From: Methanobacteriota archaeon
Lineage (GTDB): Archaea > Thermoplasmatota > DTKX01 > VGTL01
NCBI GenBank assembly: GCA_016874675.1
Contig: VGTL01000003.1
Location: 11,346-75,345, forward strand
DNA: 64,000 nt
Reading direction: 5' to 3'
Position numbers and translations under genes: made by a program. Positions 29,360 through 44,959 of the stretch are shown here, in pieces; position 1 is the first letter of the stretch; the number at the start of each line of letters is the position of its first letter. The notes below the pieces were generated by a model. It was not told the DNA's origin. It saw only the letters and a list, made by a program, of their open reading frames with translations, and did no database searches.

Positions 29360-29421
29360 GACCGCAGAGGGAGATTAACCGTGACTTCGGGAATCGGCGG
29401 AAAGCCGGGGGGCGGGGTAGG

Positions 29422-30342
29422 ATGGCGCGCCGCAGGTTGAAGGGCAGTGGTGGCGCCCGGGCCGCTGCCGGCCGGCTGCCGCGCCCGTCCGGGGGCGGGC
29501 GCGCCGGTCCGGCGGCCCCGGGGCGGGCACCGGCAGCCGGGCCACCAGTCCTTCGGGCCGGCCACGTCGACGCCGACCGGTTCGAGCGCTCAAAGCGCGT
29601 GGGCTGGTTCGACTTCGAAAGGATACGGAAGGAGAGGGTGCTGGTGGTCGGGGCGGGGGCCCTGGGGAACGAGGTGGTCAAGAACCTCGTGCTCTCGGGC
29701 TACCGCCGGATATCCCTCGTGGACATGGACCGCGTGGTCTACTCGAACCTGAACCGGTGCGTCTTCTTCTCGGAGGAGGACTCCCGCCGGAAGAGGCTCA
29801 AGGCCGAGGTCGTGGCGAGCAAGGCCGGGCTCCTGGACCGCGAGGCCCGGATAGTACCGTACGACCATCGCATAGAGGAGCTCCCGGACGGTTTCTTCGG
29901 CGACCACGACCTCGTGCTCGGCTGCCTCGACAACATCGCCGCCCGGCTCCACATCAACGCCCGCACCTACCCGCGCCTCATTCCGTACGTGGACGGGGCC
30001 ACGCTCGGCACGGTGGGCAAGGTCCAGGTGGTGCTCCCGCCCGAGACGCCCTGCCTGGAGTGCGGGATGAACCGCACCCACATGAAGGTGCTCGAGAAGC
30101 GCTGGAGCTGCACCGGCCGGGACGTGACCTTCTTCGACCCCAAGCTCGCCGCCGAGATAACCACCACGAGCGTCATCGCGGCGGTCCAGGTGCGCGAGGC
30201 CCTCAAGCTGACCAGCCGCCGGCATGAAAGCTGCATCCGGCACATGTTCTACTACGACGCCACGAGGAACGTTTGCGATGTCCTGCAGGTCGACCTGAAC
30301 CCCAGATGCCCCCACCACGGGGCCCCGGAGGCCGTGGAATGA
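29422..30342 (+). CDS. E1-like ubiquitin/SAMP-activating enzyme (ThiF/MoeB/UBA family).
   Basis: Rossmann motif VLVVGAGALGNEVVKNLVLSGYRRISLVDMDRVVYSNLNRCVFF. CxxC zinc motif (ETPCLECG, later RCPHHG). A disordered Gly/Arg-rich N-terminal extension. The stop overlaps the next gene's ATG (ATGA). Confidence 0.75.
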   Translation: MARRRLKGSGGARAAAGRLPRPSGGGRAGPAAPGRAPAAGPPVLRAGHVDADRFERSKRVGWFDFERIRKERVLVVGAGALGNEVVKNLVLSGYRRISLVDMDRVVYSNLNRCVFFSEEDSRRKRLKAEVVASKAGLLDREARIVPYDHRIEELPDGFFGDHDLVLGCLDNIAARLHINARTYPRLIPYVDGATLGTVGKVQVVLPPETPCLECGMNRTHMKVLEKRWSCTGRDVTFFDPKLAAEITTTSVIAAVQVREALKLTSRRHESCIRHMFYYDATRNVCDVLQVDLNPRCPHHGAPEAVE

Positions 30343-33300
30343 AGGGCCGGTTCGACGCGCTCAAGTACGCCAAATCGCTCGAAAAGCAGCTGAGCGCCGA
30401 CCCGCGCAAGAAGAGGCTCCAAGACGACGTCGCCCGGCTCCAGTCCCGGCTCGCCGACGAGGGCAGGAAGGGCGCCGACGTCTCCGGCCTGGAGAGGCTG
30501 CTCTCGGACGCCTCCTCGGCCGTGGAGGGCGGCGACCTCGGCCTGGCCGAGGAGCTCGTCTCCAGGGCGGAGAAGGGGCTATCGGGGCTGGGGGCGCTCT
30601 CTGTCGAGGAGGCCATCGCTCGGGCGCGCCGGGCGGCCGAGGACGTCGGGATGCTGGGCCTCGACAACGTCCGGGCGCTGGAGCTGATAGGGCAGGCGGA
30701 GGACGCCATCCGAAAGAAAGACCACAGGTCCGCCCGGAAGCTGGCCGTCGCATCGCAAAAGGAGGCGGAAACGGCCCTGGAGGGATCGGTCCAGGACGCC
30801 CTGCCCTATGCCGAGGGCCTCGTCTCGGAGTGCGAGAGGTGCGGGATGGACGTATCGGGACTGCGGGGGAGGCTCTCCGCCGTCCGGGAGCTTTTGGGAA
30901 AGCGGGAGTACAACGCCGCCCTGCAGGAGTGCACCACGCTCGTCGAGGACATCGAGCCCGCCCGGAAGTCCTTCTTCCGCGAGCGCCTCGCCCGGGCGGG
31001 CGAATCCGTCGAGCGCGCCCGGGAGGGGGGCCGGGATGTCTCCGCGCTCGAGGGCTCCCTGGCCCGCGCCCGCAGGCTGCTCGACCTCAAGGACTTCGAG
31101 GGGGCCTGCGAGGCCCTCGGAGAGGTCGAGGCGGCCACAGGCGCGGCGGCGGCCCCGGCCGGCCCGCCGGGACCCGGCCCGGAGGCCCCCCCGGACGAGG
31201 TGGAGGAGGCCTCCGGGGTGCTCTCGGAGCTCAGGTCGGCCATCGCGGCCGGGACCAAGATGGGTCTTGACCTCAAGGCCGAAACGGCCAGGGTGCCCGA
31301 GGTCGAGGGCCTGTTGAAGGCCGGTGACGGCCGGGGCGCCGCCGCCGTCGGGCGGCAGGTGCTGGCGAAGGTGCGCGAGCGCCAGAAGGCCCTCTCCGGG
31401 AGCGCCATAGCGTCGCTCGAGGATGAGGTGGCCCGGCTCCGCAAGGGGGGCGCCTCGGTGGCCCCCGCGCAGAAGGTCCTCGAGCAGGCCTCCGAGAGGC
31501 TGCGGGCCGGCTCCCACGAGGAGGCGTTCGCCCTGGCCCGCCGGGCGGTCGACGAGCTCGACGCCCTCCGGGAAGGGATGGCCGGCTACGCGGAGGCGAT
31601 GTCCCGGTGCAAGGGCCTGCTCAAGGACGCCGCTGGGAGCCGGCTGGACTGCACGCTCGCCGAGCCCCTGGTCGAGGAGGCCCGGGCGGCCGCGGCCCGG
31701 GGCGAGTACCTCGCCGCTGCCGGGAAGCTCGCCGAGGCCCTCGGGTTGCTCGAGGACGCGATGGCCGGCCGGGCCGCCGGCGGCCTCCGGCGGGCGCTGG
31801 AGCTGGTCTCCCGCGCCGACGAGGAGGGGACGGACCTCGAGGACGTCGAGAGGCTGGCGCTCGACGGGCTGGCATTCGAGGAATCCGGGGAGGGCGGGCG
31901 GCTGGGCGAGGTGGCCGCCACCATCGAGCGGCTGGCGGGCTCGCGGGCCCGCTCATCGATGATGGCCCGGGACGCCCTCGACCGGGCCGGCGAGACGATG
32001 GCCGAGGCGATGATGGAGATGCTGGACGTCTCCGACGAGACCCGCAAGGTGGGGCTGGCCGGGGAGGCCCTGCAGAGGGGGGAGTACGAGGACGCCCGGT
32101 TCCTCGCGGAGGACGTCGCCCCGGCCCTCCGCCAGCGGTGCCGCGAGGCCCTGGACCAGTCCATATCGAAGGCGGCCTCGATGGTGGAGGAGCTGGGCCA
32201 GTCCGGGGCCGAGATGCCCCGGGCGCGGGAGTACCTCCGCAGGTCGCGCGAGCTCGCCGAGTGCGGCCGTTTCGGGCTGGGGCACTCCTACGCGCTGCAG
32301 GCGGTCCAGGAGGCCCGCGCGGTCGGCGACCGCTTCCGGGAGGCCCAGGACGCCCGCGCCGCCGTGGAGGCCATGCTCGAGAGCGCGACGGCGCTGGGGG
32401 TGCCCCGGGAGGATTTGGAGGCCGCCCTGTCGGAGGTCAGCTCGGCCATCGAGGTTCGCGCCTACGAGAGGGCAGTGGCGGCCGGGGCGGCCGGACTGGA
32501 GCGGGGCGAGGAGCGCTTCGCCCGGGAGGCCCGCGCCCTGGAGGCGGGCCTCTCCGAGCTCCTGTCGTCGCTTCGCAAGCTGCCCATCGATGGCTCGGCC
32601 GGGGCGGCGGCCCTCAAGGCCGCCCGGGGCCACCTGGGGAAGGCGGAGCACGCCGAGGCCATATCGGCGCTCAGGGGGCCGACCGAGAGCCTGTCGAGGG
32701 CGAGGCGGCAGTACGAGGATTCAGCGGCCGCGCTGGAGGCTGCGCTGGCGCGTCTGTCGGAGGCCGAGGGATACGGCCTGGACGTCTCCGAGATCAGGCC
32801 TGACCTCGAGGCCGCCTCCCGTGCCCATTCCTCCGGCGCCTACGACGAGGGATTCCGGCTTGCGCGCACCGCCCTGGAGCTGGGGGAGCACCTGATCTCC
32901 GAGAGGGCCGCGCAGGCGATGGGGGAGCTCCGGGACCTCCTGGAGTCCACCGAGCGGGCCGGCACCGTCCTCGACGACCTGCACGAGCGCGTCGGGGCGC
33001 TCTCCGGGTGCTTCTCGTCCAAGGCGTTCGGGGGGCTCTTCAAGGAGGCGGTGGCCATACGCGCCGAGATAGGGAGGCGCCGGGCGCGCCACTCCGAGGC
33101 GGTCACGGCCATCCAGGGCATCCAGGCCGCCATCGAGGAGGTCAAGGCGATGGGCGCGGACCTCAGCCCGACCGAGGACCTCCTGGGATTGGCGCGGTTC
33201 GCCTCCGAGCGGGGCTCCTATGACGATGTGCTGGACTACTCCCGGCGGGCGCAGTCGGAGCTCACCGCCGCCGCCGGATCGAGCGTGGACAGGCAGCGGG

Positions 33301-36300
33301 AGGCCCTCGCCGCGCGCATCGCCAGGCACGCCGGCGAGGGTGTGGAGCTTCGGGCCTGCCGGAACGCTCTTTTGGCCAACCCCGGCCTGCTTCCCGACGG
33401 CGGCTTCCGGGCCGTCCTGGCCGACCTCAAACGCATCGAGACCGACATGGAGGTGCGCCGGGACCAGCACCGCAACACCCAGAAGGTCCTGGCGGCAGCC
33501 GAGTCCCGCCTGACCGAGGCCGGGAGCCTGGGGGTCAACACCGCCGATGCCTCCCGGCTCCTCGAGTCGGCAAGGGGGGCCTCTTCGGCCGGCGACTACC
33601 CCAAGGCGGTGGAGCTCGCCGAGCAAGCGCGCGACATCGCCGCCCGCAGCACCGAGAGCCACCAGCAGACCATGGGCGCGATGGAGCTCGCCCGCGCCCA
33701 CCTGCGCGACGCCGAATCGATGGGGGCCGACATCGCCCGTGCCCGGGAGCTCCTGGAGCGGGCGGCCGCGATGTTCGCGGCGCGCAACTACGACGACGCC
33801 ATGGCCCTGGTGGTCGAGAGCGAGACCGATATCCTCCACTCGCAGGAGACGCTGGTGGGGGACACGATGGATCTTGCCCGCTCTACGCTGGATGAGGCCC
33901 AGAAGATCGGCGCCGACACGAACGGCGCCATGGAGCTCCTCGGGCGCGCCGAGAGCGCCAGGCAGGCGCGCGACTTCGGGCCGGCCTTTGCCCTGGCCCG
34001 GGAATCCTACGAGAGCGCCCAGGAGGAGCGTTCCCGCCACAGCACGGCCCTGGGGGCCCTCAGCGAGATCCAGGAGATGGTACAGAAGGCGCAGGCCGAG
34101 GGGGTGCGGGTGGAGCGCCTGGTGAAGGAGCTCGAGCACGCCCGGGAGGCCCTGCAGAGATTCGACTACGAGGGCTGCACCGGCACCGCCGAGCGGGTCC
34201 GGATGCAGGCGGAGGAGTGCATCGGCGCCGCCACGCAGGCCCGGCGGGCGCTGGAGCGCTGCGAGGCCGCCCTCCGCACGGCCACCGAGATGGCTGCCCA
34301 GACCAACGAGGGCGAGGGGCTGCTTCTCCGCTGCCGGGAGCAGTACCAGGCCGGCGAGTACCGCGCCGCCCTCTCCACCGCCGGGACCTGCCACGAGCGC
34401 CTGGCCGCCGCCCAGCACCGCCAGGTCTGGGGCGAGCTCGGCCAGCTGGTCCTCGAGCTAGACGACGCGGAGGATGCGGGGGCCGAGCTCTCGGCGGCGT
34501 GGGGGCTGGCCGAGGAGGCGGGGCTCGCGCTCGCCGGCGGGGACTTCCCCAGCGCGCTCCTGAGGACCCGGGCCGCCCGGACGAGGCTCGCCGAGGCCAC
34601 CCACGCGTTCGAGGGCATCTCCAGCGTCATGCTCGCCAGCCGCCTGATAGTGGACGAGGCGCGCTTCATGGAGGCCGACGTCGCGGTGGCCTCGGACCTC
34701 TCCGCCGGTGCCCAGAGCGAGCTTCGGGCGGGCAACTACCACGGCACCCAGGAGCTGGCGCTCCAGGCGGCGGAGGAGGCCACCCGCAACCAGAGGAGCC
34801 TCCTCAACCAGCTCATCTCGACGGCCGACCGGGCCGTGTCGGAGGCGGCGGGGTGGGGCATCAGGTCGCGCCTTGCGGTCGACCGGCTGGCGCGCTCCCG
34901 GACGGCGATGGAGTTCCAGGACTTCAAGGGGGCCCGCGACCTCCTCGAGGAGTGCGACGACGCGCTGGCGCAGGCGATAACCGACCACAAGGGCGTCTCG
35001 GACAGGATGGCCCAGCTCACCGAGTCCCTCGTGAGGGCCGAGGCGCTCGGCCTGGACCCAGCCCCCGTGCGGAAGGGGGCCGCCGAGGCCGAGACGCTGG
35101 CGGCCCGGGGCGAGTACTCCCGGGCGCTGGAGGCGCTGGGCGACCTGTCCCGGGAGCTGGCCGCGGCCGAGCGCACGCTGGTGTCGGACCGCCTGGAGCA
35201 ATCCCGATTGGCCCTGGAGGAGGCCCTCGCCCAAGGCGTGTTCATCGCCGATGCCGCCCGGGCCATTGAAGGGGCGAGGGGGGCCCTGGAGTCGGGGCAG
35301 TTCCAGTCCGCCCTGGAGCTTGCCGCGGAGGCATCGCGCACGGTGGAGAACAACCGCCAGGAGCACCGGCGGGTCACGGCGATCGTGATGGAGCTCTCCT
35401 CCGAAATCGAGTGCGGCAAGGAGCTGGGTGTGGGGGTCCCCGACTCGCCTGCCGTCCTCTCCGGCGCCCGGGAGCTCCTCTCCCGCGGGGAGTTCGCCCA
35501 GGCCGAGGAGCAGGCGCGCCGGGGCCGCGCCGCCGTGGCGAGCGCCCTCACCGGGGCGATGCAGGGCAACCTCTCCGCGCTGGAGGAGGAGCTGCGCGAG
35601 GCCGAGCGACAGGGCGTTAGGTCGGCGGTGGCCGCCGGGCTCCTGAAGGGGGCCGACCGGGACCTCCGCTCCAGATCCTACTCGGAGATGATCGGCCACA
35701 TCGAGGAGGCGCGCCGGGAGCTCGCCGCGGCCCGCCGGGCCCGTGAGCAGATCCAGCGGACGCTCGAGTCCATGGGCGAGAGGCTGAAGGAGACGGAGGC
35801 GCTGGGCGCCGACGGCGAGGCGGCCTCGGCGCTCGTGGGCCGCGCGATGGAGGTCTCCTCGGAGGGCGACTACGCCCAGGCCCTGGAGCTCCTGGGGGAG
35901 GCCGATCTTGCCGTCGAGGCCGCCCAGCGCGTCCGGGTGGAGGAGGCGCTCTCGGGGGCCTCGGCGCTCGTCGAGGAGGGCGACGCCATCGGCGCGGACA
36001 CGCGCGCCGCCCACAAGGCGCTCGCCGGCGCGAGGAAGGCCCTGGAGGGGAGGGACTACCGGGGGACCTCCGGGCTCGCCCGGGAGGCCCTCGAGGAGGC
36101 CGAGCGGCGGGTCGGGGAGCACCGGCGCAGCATCGAGACTGTGGCCGTATCGGAGAAGACGCTGGCGGACGCCGAGTCCGAGGGGCTGAACGTGGAGCGG
36201 CTGCGCCGCGTGCTGGAGGAGGCACGCCGCAGCCTGCGCAAGCACGACTACCCGGCGGTGGCGGAGGCGGCCGCCCGGATCGACCGGGAGGTCGGGACCC

Positions 36301-39300
36301 TCCTGCGCCAGTCCAGCGAGGCCCGGCGGCTGATAGGCTTCTGCGAGCGCAAAATCGACTCGGCGCGCCATATCGGCGCCGATGTCTCATCGGCGGAGGC
36401 CCTCCTGGCCGAGGCCCGGGCCGCCACGGAGAAGCGGGTCTTCGTGAAGGCCTTCGAGCTCGCCACCCAGTGCCTGCGGCAGATAGACAGCATGCAGCAC
36501 GCCGTCGTGCTGGGGTACCTCACCGACAGCGAGCTCCAGCTCGCCGAGATGGAGGAGGCGGGGGCCGACATCGCCGAGGCCCAGGAACTGATAGAGATCG
36601 CCATCGAGGCCCTCAACGAGAGCGAGTTCGAAAAATCCATGGAGCTCGGCCGCCAGGCGGTCGAGACCGCCCGGGGCAAGATGTCCCAGCACGAGCTGGC
36701 CGCCGAGAGGGTCCGGGAGCTCGAGCGCAAGATGAAGGACGCCACGGAGCTGGGCGGGGACCTGCGCTCCATCGAGAGGCTGCACTCCGAGGCCCGCTCG
36801 GCGCTCCAGTCCCACGACCACGCCCGCCTGGAGGCGATCGCCGGCGAGGCGCTGGAGGCGATGGTCGGCTCCCTCCACGAGCTGGTGGCCACCCGGACCG
36901 CCGAGGCCTCGGCGGTCATCTCGGGCGTCGAGGAGATAGGCGCGGCCGTGGCCAGGGCGCGCGACCGCCTGCTGCGGTCCCGGCGGGCGCTCGAGTGCGA
37001 CGACTTCAAGACGGCCCTCAACCTGCTTGAGGAATCCCAGAGCGCCGCGGGCGCCGCCCGGCTCAGGCACGCCGAGACTCTCGAGGGCGTCAAGGGGCTC
37101 CAGAACATGGCCCGGGAGGCCTCCGAGCTGGGGCTGGACGTGTCGCGGGCCCGGTGGGCGCTGGCCGAGGTGGACGAGGCCATCGACGAGGGCCAGTACG
37201 ACCAGGCCGACCGCATAATCTCCGAAACGCGCGCCGAGCTGGAGAAGGGCTACCTCAGCCACGCCGAGCAGGCGCTCGCCCGGACGGAGGAGGCGCTGGT
37301 CAAGACCCGGGAGCTGGGGGCGGACGTCGGGGCCGAGGTGAAGGCCCTGGCCGAGCTGCGCGTCATCTTCTCGCAGGGACGCTACCAGACGGTGATGAAG
37401 TCGTGCCGGGAATGCCGGCGCAGGCTGGACGAGAGGCTCAACGAGCACATCGCCGGGATCATCCTCCGGGCCGAGAACCTCATAAACGAGGCGGGGAAGG
37501 TGGGGGTGGACGCCCGGGAGTACCGGGAGACCCTGGAGCGCTCCGAGGAGACCGTCAGCGAGGGCGACTACGAGGCGGCCCTCCGTTTGGCCAGCGAGGC
37601 CATCGACCGGACCCGGGCGCTCCTGCGCAGCTCCATATCGGGAACGATATCGACCCTGGGGGGGCTGATAGAGGAGTCGCGCCGCATCGGGGCCGACGTC
37701 CGGGAGGTGGAGGAGTACTCCCGGCAGGCGCTCTCGGCCCTGCAGAAGGACGAGTACGAGCTCGCCCACGACCACGCCCTCTCGGGCATCGCGGCGGTGG
37801 ACCGCGTCCGGGAGGAGTTCATCGTCCGCCGCAGGCAGGAGGTCGAGCGCAAGATCTCCGAGGCCGAGGCGATGGGGGCCCAGGTGGAGGACTTCCGCCG
37901 CTCGACGGCCAAGGCCCAGGAGTTCCTGGAGAGGGCGGACTTCGAGAAGGCCGCCCTGCTGCTTCAGGAGACGGAGGAGAACACCCTCAAGCGGCAGTCG
38001 CGCGTGGCCGAGGAGAGCATCCGCCGGGCCGAGGAGCAGCTCGCCAAGGTGAAGATGGACATAGACCTGGCCCGGGCCCGCTCGCTCCTCGACGAGGCGC
38101 GCAGCGCCCTGGGATACGGGGAGTTCGAGGAGGCGGTGGACTACTCGGTGCAGTGCGTGGAGGAGACGAACCGCGTCCAGGCCCAGTTCGTCGAGGAGGT
38201 GATCGGCACCACGGAGGAGACCATCGCCGCGGCCGCCCAGATGGGCGCCGACACCCAGAAGGCGCGCGAGCTCCTCGACTACTCGCGCGCCGACCGGGAG
38301 GCGGGCAACTTCGACGCCGCCCTGGCGAAGGCTGTGCAGGGGGCGGAGGAGGCCGAGCAGGCCCAGTACGACTTCGTGCGCGGGCCCATCGAGCACATCC
38401 GCCGGGTGATGAAGGAGGCCCGGCTCTCCGACGACAGGATAAAGCGGCTGATGGCGGCGGCCGAGGGGCACCTCGAGAAGAAGGAGTACCAGGAGGCCCG
38501 CCGGGAGGTCATGCGCGCCATGGACCTCACCGGGGAGATCCAGGAGAAGCTCGCCCGCAAGGAGATAATGGACTCCGAGGAGGTCGTGGCCGGGGTCGAG
38601 AAGGCGGGGGCGGTCTCGCCCGTCGCCCGCAACCTGCTCCGGAGCGCCCTGACCGCCATCAACGCCCGCGACTTCGAAAAGGCCATGAAGTTCTCCCGCG
38701 AGTGCTCCGTTCAGGCCATGAAGACGCGCGACGAGTTCGCCTCCGCCCAGAGGGCCCAGACTGCGGCGGAGGCCGAGATCGCCACCCTGAACGAGCTGGG
38801 CCTCATGACCGAGGAGACGGGGGACCTTCGGGACCTCTCGAGGTCCGGGTTCTCCTCCGGCGATTACATGAAGTCGAAAGAGTACTCCGCCCAGGTGGTC
38901 CACAAGGCGGAGTCGCTCTACTTCAAGGCGGCCGGAGAGGCCCTCTCCTCGTCCCAGTTCAAGATAAACTACGCCAGAAACATCGGGGCGGACGTCAGCA
39001 CGGCCGAGAGCCTGCTTCGCGACGCGAAGGCCGCAAACGAGTCCCGGGACTTCCGCCGCACCCTCGAGCTCGCCCGGCGCTGCCGAGAGGAGGCCGAGAG
39101 GGCCAAGGAGCGCTACAAGGAGCTCGTGGACACCATCTACTCCGCCGAGTCGAAGATATCGGTCGCCCACACCTACGGCCTGGACACCTCCGCCGCCGAG
39201 CGGCTGCTCTCGATGGCGGTGGCCCAGAAGTCGAAAAACGGCGAGGAGGCCCTCGATTTCGCCCGCCAGAGCATGGAGGAGGTCCAGCGGGCCCTCGAGA

Positions 39301-39824
39301 GGTTCACCCCCGACATCAAGGTCGAGATAAAGCTCGAGGGGGTGCTCCAGAAGGAGCGGTGGAGCCAGGCCTCCCTGACCATCTCGAACACCGGGAAGGC
39401 GACGGCCAAGGACATCTCCGTGCGCTTCAGCGGCGACCTCGAGGTGCAGGGCGGCGAGCGCGTGAGCGTTCTGCGCGGCGGGGAGAGCCGGAGGCAGTCC
39501 GTGCGGGTCCGGCCCTCGAAGGGCGGGGACCTGCCCCTGGGAACGAGCGTGGTGAGCTTGAGGGAGTTCGACGACAAGGAGTTCCGGTCACAGGAGACGC
39601 GCTGGATCCGCGTGGAGGACGCCACACCCCTGGCGACGCCCCTCAACCAGTTCGTCACCAAGTCCGTGAGGTGCCATATCTGCCTGGGCACGATAAAGTC
39701 CGGGCTGCCCCTCGTGCGGTGCGAGTGCGGCAAGACCTACCACGAGACCTGCGCCTCGCGCGTGGGGGAGTGTCCCAACTGCGGGCGGGACCTGCATAAC
39801 GTCGGCCCGGGCGGGGGGGGCTGA
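30339..39824 (+). CDS. Giant (3161 aa) alpha-helical repeat protein: about 40 tandem copies of a 65-75-aa unit, a beta-rich domain, then a C-terminal C4HC3 RING-variant/PHD-like zinc finger. Candidate E3-like scaffold.
   Basis: Repeat core G-[AV]-D-[VT]-x3-A-x2-LL-x2-A-x2-A-x4-[DE]-[YF]-x2-A-x2-LA, for example GADVSRARELLERAAAMFAARNYDDAMALV. C-terminus CHICLGTIKSGLPLVRCECGKTYHETCASRVGECPNCG fits C-x2-C-x12-C-x-C-x4-H-x2-C-x6-C-x2-C. Translationally coupled to the E1 gene. Confidence 0.7.
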   Translation: MKGRFDALKYAKSLEKQLSADPRKKRLQDDVARLQSRLADEGRKGADVSGLERLLSDASSAVEGGDLGLAEELVSRAEKGLSGLGALSVEEAIARARRAAEDVGMLGLDNVRALELIGQAEDAIRKKDHRSARKLAVASQKEAETALEGSVQDALPYAEGLVSECERCGMDVSGLRGRLSAVRELLGKREYNAALQECTTLVEDIEPARKSFFRERLARAGESVERAREGGRDVSALEGSLARARRLLDLKDFEGACEALGEVEAATGAAAAPAGPPGPGPEAPPDEVEEASGVLSELRSAIAAGTKMGLDLKAETARVPEVEGLLKAGDGRGAAAVGRQVLAKVRERQKALSGSAIASLEDEVARLRKGGASVAPAQKVLEQASERLRAGSHEEAFALARRAVDELDALREGMAGYAEAMSRCKGLLKDAAGSRLDCTLAEPLVEEARAAAARGEYLAAAGKLAEALGLLEDAMAGRAAGGLRRALELVSRADEEGTDLEDVERLALDGLAFEESGEGGRLGEVAATIERLAGSRARSSMMARDALDRAGETMAEAMMEMLDVSDETRKVGLAGEALQRGEYEDARFLAEDVAPALRQRCREALDQSISKAASMVEELGQSGAEMPRAREYLRRSRELAECGRFGLGHSYALQAVQEARAVGDRFREAQDARAAVEAMLESATALGVPREDLEAALSEVSSAIEVRAYERAVAAGAAGLERGEERFAREARALEAGLSELLSSLRKLPIDGSAGAAALKAARGHLGKAEHAEAISALRGPTESLSRARRQYEDSAAALEAALARLSEAEGYGLDVSEIRPDLEAASRAHSSGAYDEGFRLARTALELGEHLISERAAQAMGELRDLLESTERAGTVLDDLHERVGALSGCFSSKAFGGLFKEAVAIRAEIGRRRARHSEAVTAIQGIQAAIEEVKAMGADLSPTEDLLGLARFASERGSYDDVLDYSRRAQSELTAAAGSSVDRQREALAARIARHAGEGVELRACRNALLANPGLLPDGGFRAVLADLKRIETDMEVRRDQHRNTQKVLAAAESRLTEAGSLGVNTADASRLLESARGASSAGDYPKAVELAEQARDIAARSTESHQQTMGAMELARAHLRDAESMGADIARARELLERAAAMFAARNYDDAMALVVESETDILHSQETLVGDTMDLARSTLDEAQKIGADTNGAMELLGRAESARQARDFGPAFALARESYESAQEERSRHSTALGALSEIQEMVQKAQAEGVRVERLVKELEHAREALQRFDYEGCTGTAERVRMQAEECIGAATQARRALERCEAALRTATEMAAQTNEGEGLLLRCREQYQAGEYRAALSTAGTCHERLAAAQHRQVWGELGQLVLELDDAEDAGAELSAAWGLAEEAGLALAGGDFPSALLRTRAARTRLAEATHAFEGISSVMLASRLIVDEARFMEADVAVASDLSAGAQSELRAGNYHGTQELALQAAEEATRNQRSLLNQLISTADRAVSEAAGWGIRSRLAVDRLARSRTAMEFQDFKGARDLLEECDDALAQAITDHKGVSDRMAQLTESLVRAEALGLDPAPVRKGAAEAETLAARGEYSRALEALGDLSRELAAAERTLVSDRLEQSRLALEEALAQGVFIADAARAIEGARGALESGQFQSALELAAEASRTVENNRQEHRRVTAIVMELSSEIECGKELGVGVPDSPAVLSGARELLSRGEFAQAEEQARRGRAAVASALTGAMQGNLSALEEELREAERQGVRSAVAAGLLKGADRDLRSRSYSEMIGHIEEARRELAAARRAREQIQRTLESMGERLKETEALGADGEAASALVGRAMEVSSEGDYAQALELLGEADLAVEAAQRVRVEEALSGASALVEEGDAIGADTRAAHKALAGARKALEGRDYRGTSGLAREALEEAERRVGEHRRSIETVAVSEKTLADAESEGLNVERLRRVLEEARRSLRKHDYPAVAEAAARIDREVGTLLRQSSEARRLIGFCERKIDSARHIGADVSSAEALLAEARAATEKRVFVKAFELATQCLRQIDSMQHAVVLGYLTDSELQLAEMEEAGADIAEAQELIEIAIEALNESEFEKSMELGRQAVETARGKMSQHELAAERVRELERKMKDATELGGDLRSIERLHSEARSALQSHDHARLEAIAGEALEAMVGSLHELVATRTAEASAVISGVEEIGAAVARARDRLLRSRRALECDDFKTALNLLEESQSAAGAARLRHAETLEGVKGLQNMAREASELGLDVSRARWALAEVDEAIDEGQYDQADRIISETRAELEKGYLSHAEQALARTEEALVKTRELGADVGAEVKALAELRVIFSQGRYQTVMKSCRECRRRLDERLNEHIAGIILRAENLINEAGKVGVDAREYRETLERSEETVSEGDYEAALRLASEAIDRTRALLRSSISGTISTLGGLIEESRRIGADVREVEEYSRQALSALQKDEYELAHDHALSGIAAVDRVREEFIVRRRQEVERKISEAEAMGAQVEDFRRSTAKAQEFLERADFEKAALLLQETEENTLKRQSRVAEESIRRAEEQLAKVKMDIDLARARSLLDEARSALGYGEFEEAVDYSVQCVEETNRVQAQFVEEVIGTTEETIAAAAQMGADTQKARELLDYSRADREAGNFDAALAKAVQGAEEAEQAQYDFVRGPIEHIRRVMKEARLSDDRIKRLMAAAEGHLEKKEYQEARREVMRAMDLTGEIQEKLARKEIMDSEEVVAGVEKAGAVSPVARNLLRSALTAINARDFEKAMKFSRECSVQAMKTRDEFASAQRAQTAAEAEIATLNELGLMTEETGDLRDLSRSGFSSGDYMKSKEYSAQVVHKAESLYFKAAGEALSSSQFKINYARNIGADVSTAESLLRDAKAANESRDFRRTLELARRCREEAERAKERYKELVDTIYSAESKISVAHTYGLDTSAAERLLSMAVAQKSKNGEEALDFARQSMEEVQRALERFTPDIKVEIKLEGVLQKERWSQASLTISNTGKATAKDISVRFSGDLEVQGGERVSVLRGGESRRQSVRVRPSKGGDLPLGTSVVSLREFDDKEFRSQETRWIRVEDATPLATPLNQFVTKSVRCHICLGTIKSGLPLVRCECGKTYHETCASRVGECPNCGRDLHNVGPGGGG

Positions 39825-39864
39825 GGGAATGCGGGCACGGGGCGGAGCGAGGGGGCCGAGCCGC

Positions 39865-39905
39865 TACATGCCAGGGACAAAAAGTAAATATAAGGAAATG
39901 CGAAT
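39865..39905 (+). promoter_or_regulatory. AT-rich promoter-like element upstream of the Ub-like gene.
   Basis: caaaaagtaaatataaggaaatgcgaatatgg, a TATA-like taaatataagg in GC-rich context. An aggggt RBS-like sequence precedes the ATG at 39981. Confidence 0.4.
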
Positions 39906-39980
39906 ATGGTTGCCGTAAAGGGTACAAAGCGGAGGTTTTGACGGACTACGGCCTTGCTCGGCTGCGGGAAAGGGGTATTG

Positions 39981-40223
39981 ATGACCACCAGGGTGACGAT
40001 AAAGGACGCGGACACCGGCAGCAGGATCGAGATGGACCTTGAACCGGACAACACCATCGAGGAGACCATCGAGAGCGCCGCCAGCTACTGGGAGAAGGAG
40101 GCCGGGGCGTACGTCCTCCGCTGCGGCAAGAGGGTGCTCCGCGGTCAAATCACGCTTGCCGAATCGGGGATCCGAGAGGGCGATGTCCTGGAGCTCATCC
40201 CCGATCCCGAGGGCGGAGCGTGA
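39981..40223 (+). CDS. Small ubiquitin-like beta-grasp protein (80 aa) ending ...PEGG-A.
   Basis: MTTRVTIKDADTGSRIEMDLEPDNTIEETIE...VLELIPDPEGGA. Ubiquitin-like in length and pattern, with a C-terminal diglycine followed by one extra residue. Confidence 0.6.
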   Translation: MTTRVTIKDADTGSRIEMDLEPDNTIEETIESAASYWEKEAGAYVLRCGKRVLRGQITLAESGIREGDVLELIPDPEGGA

Positions 40224-40390
40224 GAGCCCCCTTGGCCGTCGCGCTGGGCCGGGGGAGGGGAGAGGGAACCGGGGTGCTGGGTCGGACCGGGACGGGCCGG
40301 TCCCGTGAAGGGGGGGTGTGAGGAACGCCGCTTCCCAAGGAGATACTTCGAAGGAGGCTCCAGAACGAGATAGCCCAGGTCCGCCGCAAG

Positions 40391-40873
40391 ATGATCCACA
40401 CCATCGTGGTCTCGGACCCCACTTTCAGCACGTTCCCCGTGGAGATAAAGGTCACGCTGCGCGGCGTGCCGGGGCCCATCCTTCGCGACGGCAAGGTCTC
40501 CCACAAGTTCACCCACAAGTTCACGATGGAGATCACCGATGACTATCCCTATCACAAGCCCATAGTGAGGTGGGAGACGCCGGCGTTCCACCCCAACGTG
40601 ATGCTCCCCGAGGACGGCGGCTACGTGTGCACGCGCCTTTTAGACGAGTGGGACTTCAACTCGACGCTGCTCACCTTCTTCAAGGGCATAGAGTCGCTTC
40701 TGTCCAACCCCAATCCCGCCAACCCGTACGGCACGGACAGCTGCACCCGCGCCGCCGAGTACTTCAACAAGCACCCCTACAAGCCCCCCGAGATAGTCCA
40801 GTCCGCCAAGAAGGCGCCGCGGATACTCGGGGACCGCAACGAGCCCGAGCGGGCGGGCGACCCGGGCGGGTGA
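40391..40873 (+). CDS. E2-like ubiquitin-conjugating enzyme (UBC fold).
   Basis: HPN motif and catalytic Cys in ...WETPAFHPNVMLPEDGGYVCTRLLDEWDFNSTLLTFF.... The upstream in-frame sequence LRRRLQNEIAQVRRK resembles the UBC N-terminal helix, so the true start may lie upstream at 40322-40390. Confidence 0.65.
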   Translation: MIHTIVVSDPTFSTFPVEIKVTLRGVPGPILRDGKVSHKFTHKFTMEITDDYPYHKPIVRWETPAFHPNVMLPEDGGYVCTRLLDEWDFNSTLLTFFKGIESLLSNPNPANPYGTDSCTRAAEYFNKHPYKPPEIVQSAKKAPRILGDRNEPERAGDPGG

Positions 40874-40916
40874 GCCCAACGGCCGAAGCGTCCGCGACAT
40901 CGGGGGTGCAGTAGGC

Positions 40917-41858
40917 TTGTCGGACCGGCCCAAGATCGTCGCCGAGAGGAAGCGCCGGGCCCGCGAGATGAAGCCGCCCCAGGACTTCATCATCCACGAG
41001 TGGGGGAAGCCCTACGCCGGCATAGAGGTCTACATATCCCAATTGGCGTTCGACAAGATGATGAAGCAGTGCTCTCTCTACGCCAAGCGCCACCTCGAGG
41101 CGCTGGGCTACCTGGTGGGCGACTACTGCCGGTGGAAGAACAAGGAGTACACCATAGTCGAGGACGCCGTGACCTCGGACCTGGACACCACCTCCGTGTC
41201 GGTCCACTTCCAGGCCTTCGAGAAGGCGTTCGACCAGCTGGACCGGATAGACTTCGACTACGTCCTCGTCGGCTGGTACCACTCCCACCCGGGCCACGGC
41301 TGCTTCATGTCCCAGACCGACATATCGACGCAGAAGCGGATGTTCAACAAGTCGTTCCACCTAGCGATAGTCATCGACCCCATCAACAAGGAGTTCAAGG
41401 TCTACAAGATGGACGGCCCGGTGCCGGAGGAGAAGGTCTTCGGGATATACCGCAACCTCAACGGCGAGGGGCCTCCCTCCCTGGAGGTGCACGGGCCCGG
41501 CGCGGAGGGCTATGCGCCCTACGGGGACCGGAACTCGACGCCGGCCTACGAGCCCGGGTCGGCGCCCCGCGGGGGGGCCGCCCGGGCCAAGGCGGCCGCC
41601 CGCACCGAGGCCGAGCGCATCGCCCGCGAGCGCGAGAGCCAGCGCCGCTCCCGCGAGCGCGCCGCCGAGAGGACCCGGCTCTTCAGCACGGCGCTGCTCC
41701 TCTTGCCGCTCTTCTTCGCGGCTTTCGGCGGGGTGCTGGGCTTCGCCCTCGCGTTCCAGAGGGACCGCGTGGCGGCGTGGGTCATCCTGGCCGTCGGCGG
41801 GGTCATGACCGTCCTCTGGGCATTGTGGGCGGCGGCGGGACCGCCGTTCATTGGGTAG
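40917..41858 (+). CDS. JAMM/MPN+ metalloprotease (Rpn11/deubiquitinase-like) with a C-terminal membrane anchor.
   Basis: Exact JAMM motif GWYHSHPGHGCFMSQTDI (H-S-H-x7-S-x2-D) with an upstream Glu. C-terminal hydrophobic helices LFSTALLLLPLFFAAFGGVLGFALAF and VAAWVILAVGGVMTVLWALWAAAG. Confidence 0.75.
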   Translation: MSDRPKIVAERKRRAREMKPPQDFIIHEWGKPYAGIEVYISQLAFDKMMKQCSLYAKRHLEALGYLVGDYCRWKNKEYTIVEDAVTSDLDTTSVSVHFQAFEKAFDQLDRIDFDYVLVGWYHSHPGHGCFMSQTDISTQKRMFNKSFHLAIVIDPINKEFKVYKMDGPVPEEKVFGIYRNLNGEGPPSLEVHGPGAEGYAPYGDRNSTPAYEPGSAPRGGAARAKAAARTEAERIARERESQRRSRERAAERTRLFSTALLLLPLFFAAFGGVLGFALAFQRDRVAAWVILAVGGVMTVLWALWAAAGPPFIG

Positions 41859-41859
41859 A

Positions 41860-42002
41860 TCGGCTCGGGGGACGTGTTGTTGATATCGGTTAGGGGGACT
41901 TGTTTTTCCTGTCGGTGAATGGAAGACGGCGGTAGAAAAACGAATGTACTTGTTCTCGTCTACCCCCTACCCGATCTCACCCGCACGTCCCCCGAACCGA
42001 TT
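41860..42002. terminator. Long imperfect inverted repeat between the convergent JAMM and leuB genes. Likely a bidirectional terminator.
   Basis: Arms cggctcgggggacgtgttgttgatatcggttagggggac and gtctaccccctacccgatctcacccgcacgtcccccgaaccg flank a T/A-rich centre (cttgtttttcc ... gaaaaacgaa). Confidence 0.4.
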
Positions 42003-43151
42003 TCATATTCTCCCCACCTTCGCTGCTATCGCCGTCGCCAGGGCCATGGTGCCCATGCTCCCGCCCATGTCCGGGGTGCGGACGCGGCCCTCGCGGATGA
42101 CCTGGGCCACCGCGGCCTCGACCCGGCCGGCCCTCTCTTTCTCTCCGAGCCACCCGAGCATCAGCCTGGCCGACAGGACCGCCGCCACGGGGTTGGCCAC
42201 GCCGCGGCCGGCGATGTCGGGCGCCGAGCCGTGGGCGGGCTCGAACATCGCGTAATCGTCGCCGATGTTGGCCCCCGGGGCGAACCCCAGCCCCCCGACG
42301 AGCTGGGCGCAAAGGTCCGACAGGATGTCGCCGAACATGTTGGTGGTGACCAGCACGTCGAAGTGAAGGGGGTCGCCCACCAGCCTCATCGCGCAGGCGT
42401 CCACCAGCATCTCCTCGTACTCGATTTCGGGGTGGTCGCGGGCGACCTCCCTGACCGCCGACAGGAAAACGCCATCGGTGGCGCGCAGGACGTTGGCCTT
42501 GTGCACCGCGGTCACGCGGCGCCTCTCCCCGTCCCTGCCGGCGATGCCCGCGCGGGCGGGCCAGCTGCGGCGCGGGACGGACGCGGCGTGCTCGAACGCC
42601 GATTTGGCTATCCGGTGGGAGGCCCTCTTCGTTATGGCCCGGACGGCTATCGCGGCCTGCCGCGGGACCCGCTCCATCCCCCGGATCTCGTAAAGCTCCT
42701 GCGGTATCCGGTCCCACTCGACGCCCGAGTACATCCCCTCGGTGTTCTCCCGGAAGATCGTTATATCGACGCCCTCGCGCATGTTCCCGGGGTTCCCGGG
42801 ATAGGCCCTGCAGGGCCGAAGATTCGTAAAGAGGTCGAACATCCTGCGGATGCGTACGACGGCGCCCGAGTAGCGGGCCCCCCTGGCCCTCTGGGCCTCG
42901 GAGAGCTCGGCCATCGCGTCCGCCTCCGGCTTAGAGGTCACCGCGCCGAAGAGCGCGCAGTCCGTCCTCCGCAGGAGCTCGATGGTGCGGTCCGGGAGGG
43001 GCGTGCCCTCCTTCCTCCAGAACTCCCAGCCGATGTCCCCGGGCATGTACCGGGCCTCGAACCCCGTGGCGTCCAGCACCAGCCGGGCGGCGCCCAGAAC
43101 CTCCCGCCCGATGCCGTCGCCCGGCAGCCAGGCGATGTCAGGCCTTGCCAT
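42003..43151 (-). CDS. leuB: Isopropylmalate/isocitrate dehydrogenase family enzyme. Probably 3-isopropylmalate dehydrogenase, given the adjacent leuCD.
   Basis: LPGDGIGREV...NLRP...IFRENTEGMYSG...TTNMFGDILSDLCAQLVGGLG... are the family motifs. Confidence 0.7.
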   Translation of the reverse strand: MARPDIAWLPGDGIGREVLGAARLVLDATGFEARYMPGDIGWEFWRKEGTPLPDRTIELLRRTDCALFGAVTSKPEADAMAELSEAQRARGARYSGAVVRIRRMFDLFTNLRPCRAYPGNPGNMREGVDITIFRENTEGMYSGVEWDRIPQELYEIRGMERVPRQAAIAVRAITKRASHRIAKSAFEHAASVPRRSWPARAGIAGRDGERRRVTAVHKANVLRATDGVFLSAVREVARDHPEIEYEEMLVDACAMRLVGDPLHFDVLVTTNMFGDILSDLCAQLVGGLGFAPGANIGDDYAMFEPAHGSAPDIAGRGVANPVAAVLSARLMLGWLGEKERAGRVEAAVAQVIREGRVRTPDMGGSMGTMALATAIAAKVGRI

Positions 43152-43632
43152 GCGGAAGCCTCCTTCTGGTGTGCGGCACCAGCCCCCCGTCCTCCAGGAT
43201 GTCCATCATGAACCTCGGCAGCCGCTCGCCGTCCAGGACGCGCCTCCCGCGGCCGCACCGCAGGGTGCCTGCGGAGAGATCGACCAGGACGCGCTCGCCC
43301 TCCCTCACGGCCTTGCGGGCGCCCGGGCACCGGAGCACCGGGAGGCCCACGTTCACGGCGTTTCGGAAGAATATCCGGCCGAACGAGCCGGCCACGATGG
43401 CCTGGACGCCCGCGGCCTTCAGGGCCATCGGCGCCTGCTCCCGGCTGGAGCCCACGCCGAAGTTTAGGCCGGCCACGATGACCCGCCCCGAGAGGCGCCG
43501 CCCCGCCGGGAGGGCTCCCTCGAGGGCATGGGGGGCGAGCCTCCCCGGGTCCGCCGTCCGGCAGTGCTTCCCGGCGATTATCGCGTCCGTGCTCACTGCG
43601 TCGCCCAGGAGGAGGGCTCGGCCCCGGACCAT
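43138..43632 (-). CDS. leuD: 3-isopropylmalate dehydratase small subunit (aconitase-family swivel domain).
   Basis: MVRGRALLLGDAVSTDAIIAGKH...VIVAGLNFGVGSSREQAPMALKAAGVQAIVAGSFGRIFFRNAVNVG. Confidence 0.75.
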   Translation of the reverse strand: MVRGRALLLGDAVSTDAIIAGKHCRTADPGRLAPHALEGALPAGRRLSGRVIVAGLNFGVGSSREQAPMALKAAGVQAIVAGSFGRIFFRNAVNVGLPVLRCPGARKAVREGERVLVDLSAGTLRCGRGRRVLDGERLPRFMMDILEDGGLVPHTRRRLPHGKA

Positions 43633-44897
43633 CACCGACGCATCACCTCCCGCGGGTCGGCTATCTCCCCCTTCAGCGCGGAGGCGGCCACGGTGGCGGG
43701 GGAGGCCAGGTAGATGTCGGCCCGGGGGCTTCCCATCCGCCCCCGGAAATTGCGGCTCGTGGTCGAAATGCAGACCTCTCCGGGGGCGAGGACGCCCTGG
43801 TGCGCCCCCAGGCAGGGGCCGCAGCCGGGGCTCTCCAGGACGGCCCCCGATTCGAGCAATCTCGCGAAGACGCCCCTGCGGAGCCCCTCGAGCAGGACCT
43901 CCCTCGACGCCGGCACGAGGAGCAGTCGCACCCGGGGGTGGACCCTCCTTCCCCCGAGGATCCGGGCGGCCACCTCGAAATCCCCCAGGCGGCCGTTGGT
44001 GCACGAGCCGATGACCGCCTGGTCCAGGGGGCGGCCGGCCTCCTCCCAAACGGGCCGGACGCGGTCGACGGAATGGGGGCAGGCGAGGAGGGGCTCAAGG
44101 CGCGAGCAGTCGACCCGTATCCGCCGCTCGTACCGCGCTCCCGGGTCGGCCCGGACGGCGGCCCTCCGGGACCGAAGGCCCCCGGCGGCCAGGTAGCCGA
44201 GCGTCCTCCAGTCCGGCTCGACGATGGCGGCCTTGGCACCCATCTCGGTGGACAGGTTGCAGAGCGTCTGGCGCGCCCCGATGCCCATTCCCGACACCGT
44301 CCCTCCCGAGAACTCCATCGCCCTGTACTCCGCGCCGTAGGCGCCGATCTCACCGACCAGGTGCAGGGCCAGGTCCATCGCCCCGACGCACTGCGGGAGC
44401 CGTCCACCCGCCTCGACGCGGACCGTCCCGGGGACGCGAAGCCATATCCTCCCTGTGGCCCAGACCGCGGCGAGGTCGGTCGGTCCGACGCCGGTGGCGA
44501 ACGCTCCCAGGGCGCCCGCCATGGTGGTGTGAGAGTCGGCCCCCACGACGAGATCGCCGGGGCGGACATGCCCATTCTCGGCGAGGAGCTGGTGGCAGAC
44601 CCCCTCCCCCACGTCGTAGAAATGGCGGATTCGGTGCCTTCGCACGAAATCCCGGACGAGCCGGTGGGCGGCGGCGGTCTCCTCGCACTCGGCGGGAGAG
44701 CGGTGGTCCAGCGCGATGACGACCGTTCCCGGCCGCAGGACCCTCCGGGCGCCCATCGCCGAGAAGCCCTCTATCGCGATGCGGGCGCTCTCGTGGGCCA
44801 GCGTTAGGTCGGGGCGCGCCTGGACGAGGTCGCCCGGGTCGACCCTCTTCATGCCCGAGGCGCGCGCCAGGACCTTCTCGGAAACCGTCCGGCCCAT
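43632..44897 (-). CDS. leuC: 3-isopropylmalate dehydratase large subunit (aconitase family).
   Basis: MGRTVSEKVL...GDLVVGADSHTTMAGALGAFATGVG...GSCTNGRLGDF...CGPCLG.... Confidence 0.8.
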   Translation of the reverse strand: MGRTVSEKVLARASGMKRVDPGDLVQARPDLTLAHESARIAIEGFSAMGARRVLRPGTVVIALDHRSPAECEETAAAHRLVRDFVRRHRIRHFYDVGEGVCHQLLAENGHVRPGDLVVGADSHTTMAGALGAFATGVGPTDLAAVWATGRIWLRVPGTVRVEAGGRLPQCVGAMDLALHLVGEIGAYGAEYRAMEFSGGTVSGMGIGARQTLCNLSTEMGAKAAIVEPDWRTLGYLAAGGLRSRRAAVRADPGARYERRIRVDCSRLEPLLACPHSVDRVRPVWEEAGRPLDQAVIGSCTNGRLGDFEVAARILGGRRVHPRVRLLLVPASREVLLEGLRRGVFARLLESGAVLESPGCGPCLGAHQGVLAPGEVCISTTSRNFRGRMGSPRADIYLASPATVAASALKGEIADPREVMRR

Positions 44898-44959
44898 CGC
44901 TGGTCGCTGGACACGTAGGGTGAGGTTGGTTATTTTCTTTTGCCCCTCGCCCGCCGGAA

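Follow-up and report, generated by a model that had tools for sequence, protein, structure and literature searches.

Does a small open reading frame (ORF) in an uncultured Thermoplasmatota archaeon encode a modifier of the ubiquitin type, and does that modifier arise as a precursor that requires cleavage before use? The question is raised by a stretch of 64,000 nucleotides (nt) of contig VGTL01000003.1 (assembly GCA_016874675.1, positions 11,346 to 75,345 of the forward strand), hereafter the window, in whose numbering all positions are given. Among archaea, Caldiarchaeum and Asgard lineages are the only ones whose eukaryote-like ubiquitin cascades have been characterised, and these cascades serve as evidence for an archaeal origin of ubiquitin signalling. 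The explanation that we consider probable is that the 80-residue ORF at 39981-40223 encodes the precursor of a ubiquitin-like protein (Ubl), the modifier of a Thermoplasmatota conjugation system formed with an activating enzyme (E1), a conjugating enzyme (E2) and a JAMM metalloprotease. The gene and the codons at issue are the following:

39981..40223, + strand: Ubl precursor gene, with ATG at 39981 and TGA at 40221-40223; 80 amino acids (aa)
40212-40217, + strand: codons of G78 and G79
40218-40220, + strand: codon of A80, the Ala cap

The initial annotation described this ORF as a protein of 80 aa that ends in diglycine plus a single Ala. Translation of 39981-40223 on the + strand gives exactly MTTRVTIKDADTGSRIEMDLEPDNTIEETIESAASYWEKEAGAYVLRCGKRVLRGQITLAESGIREGDVLELIPDPEGGA before the stop codon, with the C-terminus ...ELIPDPEGGA, so that both statements hold. 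The window has a G+C content of 68% and contains long spurious ORFs on both strands. In the protein collection, the Ubl has 106 homologous clusters with 55-99% identity, and relatives are encoded in 195 species-representative genomes. All named matches belong to Thermoplasmatota (Thermoplasmata, Methanomassiliicoccales and marine lineages). Compared with the three nearest loci (L087, L088 and L090), the window gene shows 30-31 nt differences over 237 nt, 27 of them at third codon positions, which amount to 26-27 synonymous codon changes and a single non-synonymous one. This breadth of homologues, together with the excess of synonymous changes, argues that the ORF is not spurious. Judged by these comparisons, the gene is real and strong purifying selection acts on it.

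The diglycine is fixed, while what follows it is not. The string ELIPDPEGG occurs in 102 of the 105 full-length clusters, the remaining three having one conservative change each, and the looser pattern P[DE]P[EQ]GG occurs in 105 of 106, with a truncated sequence as the sole exception. G78 and G79 are invariant in the 49 sequences aligned (49/49). After the GG, 28 of the 105 clusters have no tail, 46 have one residue and 31 have 2-12 residues, so that tails are present in 77 of 105, and their first residue is of 14 kinds (A, R, F, C, S, L, Y, V, H, K, N, T, W and I). Among 80 species loci, the split is 45 without a tail, 21 with one residue and 14 with longer tails. Relatives whose mature part is 99% identical to that of the window carry RR or KGQRV in place of A. 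An exhaustive profile search of 1.84 billion representatives also retrieved four divergent natural Ubl-E2 fusions (P0123, P0159, P0183 and P0186), in all of which ...PDP(T/I/V)GG leads straight into a UBC-fold E2 (Pfam UQ_con). P0159 was recovered from two independent assemblies, and the P0183 locus has the arrangement JAB-ThiF-[Ubl-E2], without a separate Ubl gene.

An invariant GG with extensions that vary from none to an entire enzyme is the pattern that a post-translational cut after the GG would produce, and the precursors of eukaryotic ubiquitin, NEDD8 and SUMO and of Caldiarchaeum ubiquitin show it. The earlier proposal of a pro-form that needs trimming is thus borne out by comparison, through the fixed ELIPDPEGG, the hypervariable tails of 0-12 aa and the E2 fusions that keep the GG. 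We regard it as quite probable that the Ubl is a conjugated modifier made as a precursor. Its mature form is predicted to consist of residues 1-79, ending in GG, and the predicted tryptic remnant of the C-terminus, that is, the peptide after R65, is EGDVLELIPDPEGG.

The fold of the protein agrees with this reading. An AlphaFold2 model based on the 49-sequence alignment (predicted local distance difference test score (pLDDT) 89, predicted template modelling score (pTM) 0.74) has the element order beta-beta-alpha-beta-beta-3(10)-beta, which is that of the ubiquitin beta-grasp. A Foldseek search of this model against the PDB returned SUMO1, the Caldiarchaeum ubiquitin CsUb, ubiquitin, Hub1 and NEDD8 as top matches, all with a probability of 1.00 and, for SUMO1, CsUb, ubiquitin and NEDD8, template modelling (TM) scores of 0.80-0.85; the CsUb structures 6fnn, 6fno and 6fj7 matched with TM scores of 0.83-0.85 at 23-24% identity. 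The ubiquitin-like nature and the beta-grasp fold suggested in the initial annotation are thereby confirmed at the level of a confident model, its structural matches and the invariant GG. Residues of the Ubl were paired with those of ubiquitin through a profile alignment with human ubiquitin, and their conservation was taken from the 49 aligned sequences:

L46, equivalent of ubiquitin I44: hydrophobic (L, V, I or M) in 48/49
I73, equivalent of V70: I in 48/49
E71, equivalent of H68: invariant
D11, equivalent of L8: D or E in every sequence
K50, equivalent of K48: K in 36/49
G49, equivalent of G47: G in 48/49
D75 and E77, equivalents of R72 and R74: D invariant, E in 47/49

Several observations weigh against the assignment to the ubiquitin type. 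The Ile44 patch, whose equivalents the initial annotation had expected, is only half kept: L46 and I73 are hydrophobic, but the equivalents of L8 and H68 are acidic. The C-terminal arm is acidic and proline-rich (IPDPEGG), as opposed to the basic LRLRGG of ubiquitin. The Pfam ubiquitin model (PF00240) scores the Ubl at 18.2 bits, below its gathering score of 25.4; the top Pfam match is YukD (PF08817), likewise sub-threshold (24.4 bits against a cut-off of 27; 4.9e-5), and the NCBIfam scan of the Ubl gave no match. When the family profile was compared with PDB chains, only sub-threshold ubiquitin matches were obtained, and CsUb was not reached at E values up to 10, so the family placement rests on fold. 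In favour of the assignment, the profile reached poly-ubiquitin-like repeats and proteins of Paramecium, and its direct alignment with human ubiquitin (hhalign) gave an E value of 1.8e-4 at 49% probability. All curated models score the family below threshold, and its members are annotated as 'hypothetical' or 'EsaB/YukD'.

The last of these labels corresponds to a different identity, a beta-grasp protein of the YukD/EsaB type that is not conjugated and in which the GG-Ala end has no function. YukD being the top Pfam match and one NCBI record naming a homologue 'EsaB/YukD family protein' speak for it. We rejected this identity as highly improbable, since the YukD score lies under the gathering level, the GG is invariant in all 49 aligned sequences, and the genes lie in no type VII secretion context and are instead linked in a conserved manner to E1, E2 and JAB.

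That linkage brings in the rest of the locus. The following genes accompany the Ubl gene:

29422..30342, + strand: E1-like adenylating enzyme of the ThiF fold; probable start ATG 29422; Pfam ThiF 3e-45
30339..39824, + strand: giant protein of ~3160 aa, rich in Ala, Glu, Leu and Arg; candidate ligase (E3)
40325..40873, + strand: E2 with a UBC fold and an HPN...C active site; Pfam UQ_con 3e-14; start uncertain
40917..41858, + strand: Rpn11-like JAMM/MPN+ metalloprotease; Pfam JAB/MPN 5.7e-12; proposed processing and deconjugating enzyme

On the + strand of the window, the order is therefore E1, giant protein, Ubl, E2 and JAB. The order E1-Ubl-E2-JAB was held in most of the 86 loci scanned, with the JAMM gene in the same operon in most of them, an E1-Ubl gap of typically ~70 nt and a Ubl-E2 gap of typically ~10-25 nt. 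The best PDB matches of the E2 are the eukaryotic UBE2C, RAD6 and UBC9 (down to 3e-13). Those of the E1 are the active adenylation domains of UBA7, UBA1, NAE and SAE2 (~1e-24), ahead of MoeB (1e-16), and those of the JAMM protein are yeast Rpn11 (2e-15), Caldiarchaeum CsRpn11 (2e-13) and CSN5 (8e-10). The JAMM catalytic motif is intact, E...HSHx7SxxD (H-S-H-x7-S-x2-D), in the form HSHPGHGCFMSQTD. After a low-complexity linker, the C-terminus of the JAMM protein contains two predicted transmembrane helices (aa 253-308), because of which the proposed deubiquitylase would be membrane-anchored. The E1 lacks a C-terminal ubiquitin-fold domain: the ThiF domain reaches residue 419 of the 428-aa ORF and leaves no room for one. 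The E1s of relatives measure ~265-288 aa.

The small size of the E1 invites a second reading, in which the Ubl is mainly a sulfur carrier of the SAMP, Urm1, MoaD or ThiS type, thiocarboxylated at its GG by the ThiF-like enzyme, with protein tagging secondary or absent. The MoeB/ThiF-like architecture of the E1, its lack of a ubiquitin-fold domain and its sub-threshold NCBIfam matches to ThiF, MoeB and SAMP E1 are in keeping with this, as is the fact that archaeal SAMPs perform both sulfur carriage and protein tagging. Indeed, the Haloferax SAMPs, with UbaA and HvJAMM1, and Urm1 resemble the window system in being small beta-grasp modifiers with a GG end, a MoeB/ThiF-like E1 and processing or removal by a JAMM enzyme. 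SAMP systems, however, lack E2 and E3, whereas this family has a conserved UBC-type E2 (HPN...C) and a JAMM protein that is Rpn11-like and not a desampylase; sulfur transfer needs neither of these conserved operon members. The lineage of the window also has a protein ending in a RING-like finger, the best structural matches of the Ubl are ubiquitin, SUMO and NEDD8 and not MoaD or ThiS, eukaryotic E1s are better matches to the window's E1 than MoeB is, and no rhodanese or cofactor-biosynthesis genes are adjacent. Membership in the SAMP/Urm1 class was rejected on the conserved E2 and on NCBIfam scores far from the cut-offs (SAMP-E1 model, 73.5 bits against 450; desampylase, 22 against 130). A mainly sulfur-carrying role is thus improbable.

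The gene content also recalls the bacterial Bil system (BilABCD) and related Ubl-E1-E2-JAB operons (Iyer/Burroughs/Aravind 2006, PMC1779556; 'Cluster III' of Hennell James 2017), with which it shares the four components and a small E1 devoid of a ubiquitin-fold domain. Under this reading, the Ubl would belong to a horizontally acquired antiviral cassette of the Bil/ISG15-like kind, and PADLOC did return weak matches (BilD, 7e-6; JAB models, down to 4e-7; E2, 0.055). It returned none for the Ubl itself. The cluster is spread across the phylum, in the 195 species genomes and with named matches confined to Thermoplasmatota, and its enzymes are best matched by eukaryotic Rpn11, E2 and E1. Its neighbours are housekeeping genes, such as those for tRNA synthetases and ribosomal proteins, with SIS and AP-endonuclease neighbours common to distant loci, which argues against a defence island. 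On context, distribution and the absent or weak model matches, we rejected the Bil antiphage system and consider such an origin very improbable, although marginally less so than the YukD identity.

The giant protein stands apart from the conserved core. The E1 stop overlaps its start (ATGA, 30339-30342), which points to translational coupling. Its C-terminus comprises a CARDB-like domain and a C4HC3-type RING-like finger, C-x2-C-x12-C-x-C-x4-H-x2-C-x6-C-x2-C, for which the Pfam models Prok-RING_1, zf-RING_2 and CARDB all score below threshold (the RING models at 17-18 bits). No transmembrane segment was predicted in the protein. The gene is restricted to the window's own clade, where the C-terminus is 86% identical in L087-L090, and most Thermoplasmatota loci show no RING protein beside the operon. 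From its domain pattern, we put forward a role as E3 as a suggestion only.

A convergent isopropylmalate/isocitrate dehydrogenase gene closes the unit after the JAMM gene. In the marine relatives L001, L002, L007 and L009-L012, the Ubl gene is followed by one for a long JAB protein, and neither E1 nor E2 was detected nearby; in L001 this protein has 417 aa, of which 270-385 form the JAB domain, and its N-terminal half is uncharacterised. The metagenome-assembled genome CAZSUE01 has two Ubl loci, L007 without E2 and L008 with E1 and E2.

Which enzyme would remove the Ala cap? The initial annotation named the adjacent JAMM protease, by analogy with Caldiarchaeum, where pro-CsUb is cut after the GG by CsRpn11 and uncut pro-ubiquitin is not activated by its E1 (PMC5654768, PMC6043591). 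Cleavage by the JAMM protein is plausible, and this protein is rather likely to be the maturase: it is encoded in the operon, resembles Rpn11 and has a precedent in Caldiarchaeum, and an endopeptidase acting after the GG is needed for the longer tails and the E2 fusions.

Two kinds of observation count against this role. Eukaryotic single-residue caps are removed by cysteine-protease deubiquitylases (UCH and USP enzymes), a one-residue leaving group is unusual for a JAMM enzyme, and we know of no citable precedent for a JAMM enzyme removing a single-residue cap. Moreover, lineages whose Ubl has no tail to remove (28 of the 105 clusters, 45 of the 80 species loci) keep the JAMM gene just as the others do, so it is retained there for reasons other than maturation. 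Both facts would suit an arrangement in which another enzyme, such as a general carboxypeptidase or an unlinked deubiquitylase, removes the Ala while the operon's JAMM protein only deconjugates. Against this, none of the loci inspected has a further protease linked to the operon, tails of up to 12 aa and fusions to a whole E2 require an endopeptidase specific for the bond after the GG, and CsRpn11 performs both maturation and deconjugation (PMC6043591). This division of labour is therefore unlikely, and the JAMM protein remains our preferred candidate for maturation.

How the Ubl gene is expressed was addressed through the sequence upstream of it, where the following elements lie (the BRE-like, TATA and proximal assignments follow from general archaeal promoter architecture):

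39880..39909, + strand: promoter-like block AAAAG-TAAATATA-AGGAAATGC-GAATATGG, 28/30 identical in L087, L088 and L090
39880-39884, + strand: purine run resembling a transcription factor B recognition element (BRE)
39885-39892, + strand: TATA box TAAATATA
39902-39909, + strand: A/T-rich proximal element, ~10 nt past the TATA box
39971..39976, + strand: Shine-Dalgarno-like AGGGGT, 4 nt before the ATG

The full 30-nt block reads AAAAGTAAATATAAGGAAATGCGAATATGG. Both of its mismatches with L087, L088 and L090 fall in the spacer between the two A/T elements, and its flanks are heavily diverged. Within 26184-44930 (18.7 kb), TAAATATAA is the sole A/T run of at least 7 nt; the other runs of this length in the window lie mostly within A/T-rich clusters. 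A BRE, a TATA box and a proximal element make up the general architecture of archaeal promoters, and the block fits it because a purine run is followed by TAAATATA and, 10 nt on, by a second A/T element.

A family-wide signal was sought in 75 non-redundant upstream regions aligned on the Ubl start codon. The A/T frequency peaks at 0.68-0.71 at positions -40..-31, against a baseline of ~0.5, and the G frequency peaks at 0.51 at -10..-6; the recurrent motif is cGAAAAC-nnTATAAc, then GGTGGT. Both peaks persist even where the E1 gene ends only ~70 nt away. At some loci, the Ubl gene is preceded by a divergent gene or by unrelated ones: a divergent gene lies directly upstream in L005, and a minus-strand gene for a 275-aa protein and one for a zinc-ribbon membrane protein lie between E1 and Ubl in L018. 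In the window, a spacer of 156 nt precedes the Ubl gene, as opposed to the ATGA overlap that couples E1 to the giant gene.

Based on these patterns, the block at 39880-39909 is likely to be a working promoter, and Ubl-E2-JAB looks like a transcription unit of its own, with a predicted transcription start near 39915-39920 and a leader of ~60-65 nt. The initial annotation had placed a TATA-like taaatataagg and an aggggt ribosome-binding string just upstream of the ATG. Both are present (39885-39895 and 39971-39976), and the second is indeed adjacent; the TATA box, on the other hand, is 89-96 nt upstream. The claim that the modifier has its own promoter and is transcribed independently of the E1 and the giant protein is likewise upheld by the conserved block and the family peaks, with the difference that such a promoter would serve Ubl, E2 and JAMM jointly.

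Alternatively, the block could be some other conserved site, with E1, the giant gene, Ubl, E2 and JAMM on one long transcript. All five genes lie on the same strand, the box stands ~90 nt from the ATG and not at the family norm of ~30-40 nt (the peak at -40..-31), and no T-rich terminator occurs between the giant gene and the block (39824-39880), because of which read-through from the giant gene is possible. These points tell against an internal promoter. They are set against the near-identity of the block amid diverged flanks, its promoter-like layout around the only such A/T run in 18.7 kb, the A/T and Shine-Dalgarno peaks before the Ubl gene across the family, and the divergent or unrelated genes immediately 5' of it elsewhere. 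An Rfam scan of 39780-40420 at a permissive threshold gave no match, and a consensus fold of the predicted 5' leader, computed from three sequences only, which are too few, had an unfavourable covariation term (+0.45 kcal/mol); neither the leader nor the Ubl-E2 spacer yielded a significant RNA structure. A single long transcript is accordingly a weak contender, and we retain the internal promoter as the likely arrangement. In L016, L018, L019, L021 and L025, 1-2 kb of unrelated genes separate E1 and Ubl, and this junction is apparently a recurrent insertion point.

Downstream of the Ubl gene, the start of the E2 gene is unusual. Exactly two codons ahead of the conserved L-P-x-E, 70 of 79 loci have a canonical start codon (ATG, GTG or TTG). 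In the window, ACG (40325) occupies this place, and the first canonical ATG is at 40391. The 20 codons from 40331 to 40391 encode helix 1 of the E2 and differ from those of L087 by five synonymous changes and one conservative change, and since the differences are mostly synonymous, these codons are apparently translated. The frame is open from a GTG at 40220, which overlaps the Ubl stop, but it is broken by a TGA at 40319. ACG initiation, a sequencing error or a damaged gene could be the cause, and the cascade may be weakened in this strain by the non-canonical start, a point that detracts from a fully working system here.

The spacer between the two genes (40224..40324, + strand) contains a G-rich insertion of ~94 nt that is not present in the closest relatives: in those with 99% identity, the E2 starts 4 nt after the Ubl stop. 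The insertion begins directly past the GG codons, where it switches the tail from RR to A, and it is flanked by GTGAGAG-like strings. Since no copies were found elsewhere in the window or in any of the loci, the insertion cannot be recognised as a repeat or a mobile element. The fold of the spacer was no better than that of shuffled sequences (z = 0.60), and we therefore abandoned the idea that a regulatory hairpin or attenuator separates Ubl and E2.

Taken together, these elements suggest the following mechanism, in which we infer the transcription start, the JAMM cleavage, conjugation and its targets. An internal archaeal promoter at 39880-39909 would drive a transcript with a leader of ~60-65 nt that carries Ubl, E2 and JAMM. 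The 80-aa product would fold as a beta-grasp, with its C-terminal Ala blocking the carboxylate of Gly79 until a protease, most likely the operon's Rpn11-like JAMM protein, cuts after this residue. The ThiF-type E1 would then adenylate Gly79 and load the Ubl onto the active-site Cys of the UBC-type E2, from which it would be moved to lysines of target proteins, a step that the giant RING-ended protein may assist in this lineage. The same JAMM protein, anchored in the membrane by its two C-terminal helices, would reverse the modification.

The closest parallel is the Caldiarchaeum subterraneum system, with CsUb (Csub_C1474), CsRpn11 and the E1/E2/srfp operon (Nunoura 2011; Hennell James 2017, PMC5654768; Fuchs 2018, PMC6043591). 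CsUb is also archaeal, a single beta-grasp of ~78-79 residues that ends in GG and is encoded with a C-terminal pro-peptide. As in the window, its gene is clustered with those of an E1 of the ThiF type, an E2 of the UBC type and an Rpn11-like JAMM protein; its RING-type neighbour has a putative counterpart in the RING-like end of the giant protein. The two modifiers nonetheless share only 23-24% identity, with no sequence link at the profile level. They differ in the tail (one residue in the window, nine in CsUb, CGEPIRRAA) and in the arm (the acidic, proline-rich IPDPEGG against LITRTVGG). A C-terminal ubiquitin-fold domain, the hallmark of E1s in Clusters I and II of Hennell James 2017, is missing from the window E1. 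The JAMM gene of the window, set against that of CsRpn11, is co-directional and inside the operon and encodes a protein predicted to be membrane-anchored. The RING-like finger is at the end of a protein of ~3160 aa, whereas Caldiarchaeum has a small RING-finger protein, and the host belongs to Thermoplasmatota and not to Aigarchaeota or Asgard.

Eukaryotic ubiquitin, NEDD8 and SUMO precursors resemble the window protein in their beta-grasp and in a GG followed by a short cap or a fused protein that is removed before E1 activation, and eukaryotic systems share the E1-E2-RING logic. In the window family, ubiquitin L8 is replaced by Asp or Glu, H68 by Glu, R72 by Asp and R74 by Glu; the fusion partner is an E2, in contrast to the ribosomal protein of eukaryotic ubiquitin; and no cysteine-protease deubiquitylase is linked to the operon, unlike in the eukaryotic setting.

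A ubiquitin-type system is thus widespread in Thermoplasmatota and barely described there. In the searchable literature, mentions consist of a note on an Rpn11-like protein in Methanomassiliicoccus luminyensis (WP_019177758; PMC4453063), one sentence on a deep-branching Thermoplasmatota E2 clade (bioRxiv 10.1101/2023.07.25.550441) and a survey from 2015 in which the sole entry for Euryarchaeota was a single-cell genome of marine group II with a UCH and RINGs (PMC4327156). No description of the modifier itself was found in the searchable literature, a scope that leaves out most subscription-journal papers and does not prove novelty. The mechanism as such is unsurprising; the notable features are the wide distribution of the family in Thermoplasmatota, the failure of curated models to cover it, the reversed charge of the arm, the Ubl-E2 fusions and the Rpn11-like protease with its predicted membrane anchor. 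The family offers a second, independent archaeal test case for maturation after the GG, its charge-reversed C-terminal arm makes the modifier suitable for studying the specificity of E1 and deubiquitylases, and the cultured species among Methanomassiliicoccales may open a way to work in vivo.

A broader view can be offered only tentatively, and we hold it with more doubt than belief. The Thermoplasmatota cluster might be an old, mostly vertically inherited and complete ubiquitin-type signalling system outside TACK and Asgard, comprising a minimal E1, a UBC E2 and a membrane-anchored Rpn11-like protease, joined in some lineages by a giant RING-ended E3. The modifier of this system, with an acidic PDPEGG arm, would be synthesised in precursor form, with an extension that can be absent or as long as an entire E2, and would be matured by the operon's JAMM protein. 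If this is true, maturation after the GG and Rpn11-type deubiquitylation would predate the split of Thermoplasmatota from the lineage leading to eukaryotes, and the system would be open to experiment in cultivable Methanomassiliicoccales.

Some relatives of the Ubl depart from the common form. The Ubl-E2 fusion loci L092 (2586-3368), L093 (1742-2509) and L094 (155-922) lie in ThiF/JAB operons without a separate Ubl gene. In P0126, P0132, P0144 and P0176, a relative of the Ubl is fused to an FHA domain and the GG is lost, so these probably represent a non-conjugated Ubl domain; P0129 consists of two tandem Ubl copies, then hydrophobic segments. Eleven loci (L039, L041, L063, L064, L067, L069, L070, L077, L079, L082 and L035) have CTG at the codon aligned with Met1 of the Ubl, where their close relatives have TTG, GTG or ATG, with the GGTGGT Shine-Dalgarno sequence equally spaced. 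Several of the eleven have no canonical in-frame start upstream, and gene callers start them at Met18, which yields truncated entries of 62-68 aa (e.g. P0105 and P0106). The Ubl may start by CTG initiation at these loci.

Elsewhere in the window, A/T runs are densely packed (many in 30-180 nt) in two strongly A/T-rich islands (9288-9463 and 19130-19170), for which a role as promoter regions is one possibility. Finally, ARAGORN reported no tRNA in the window, whereas Rfam matched one of 107 nt at 6450-6556 (48 bits), whose length suggests an intron-containing archaeal tRNA.

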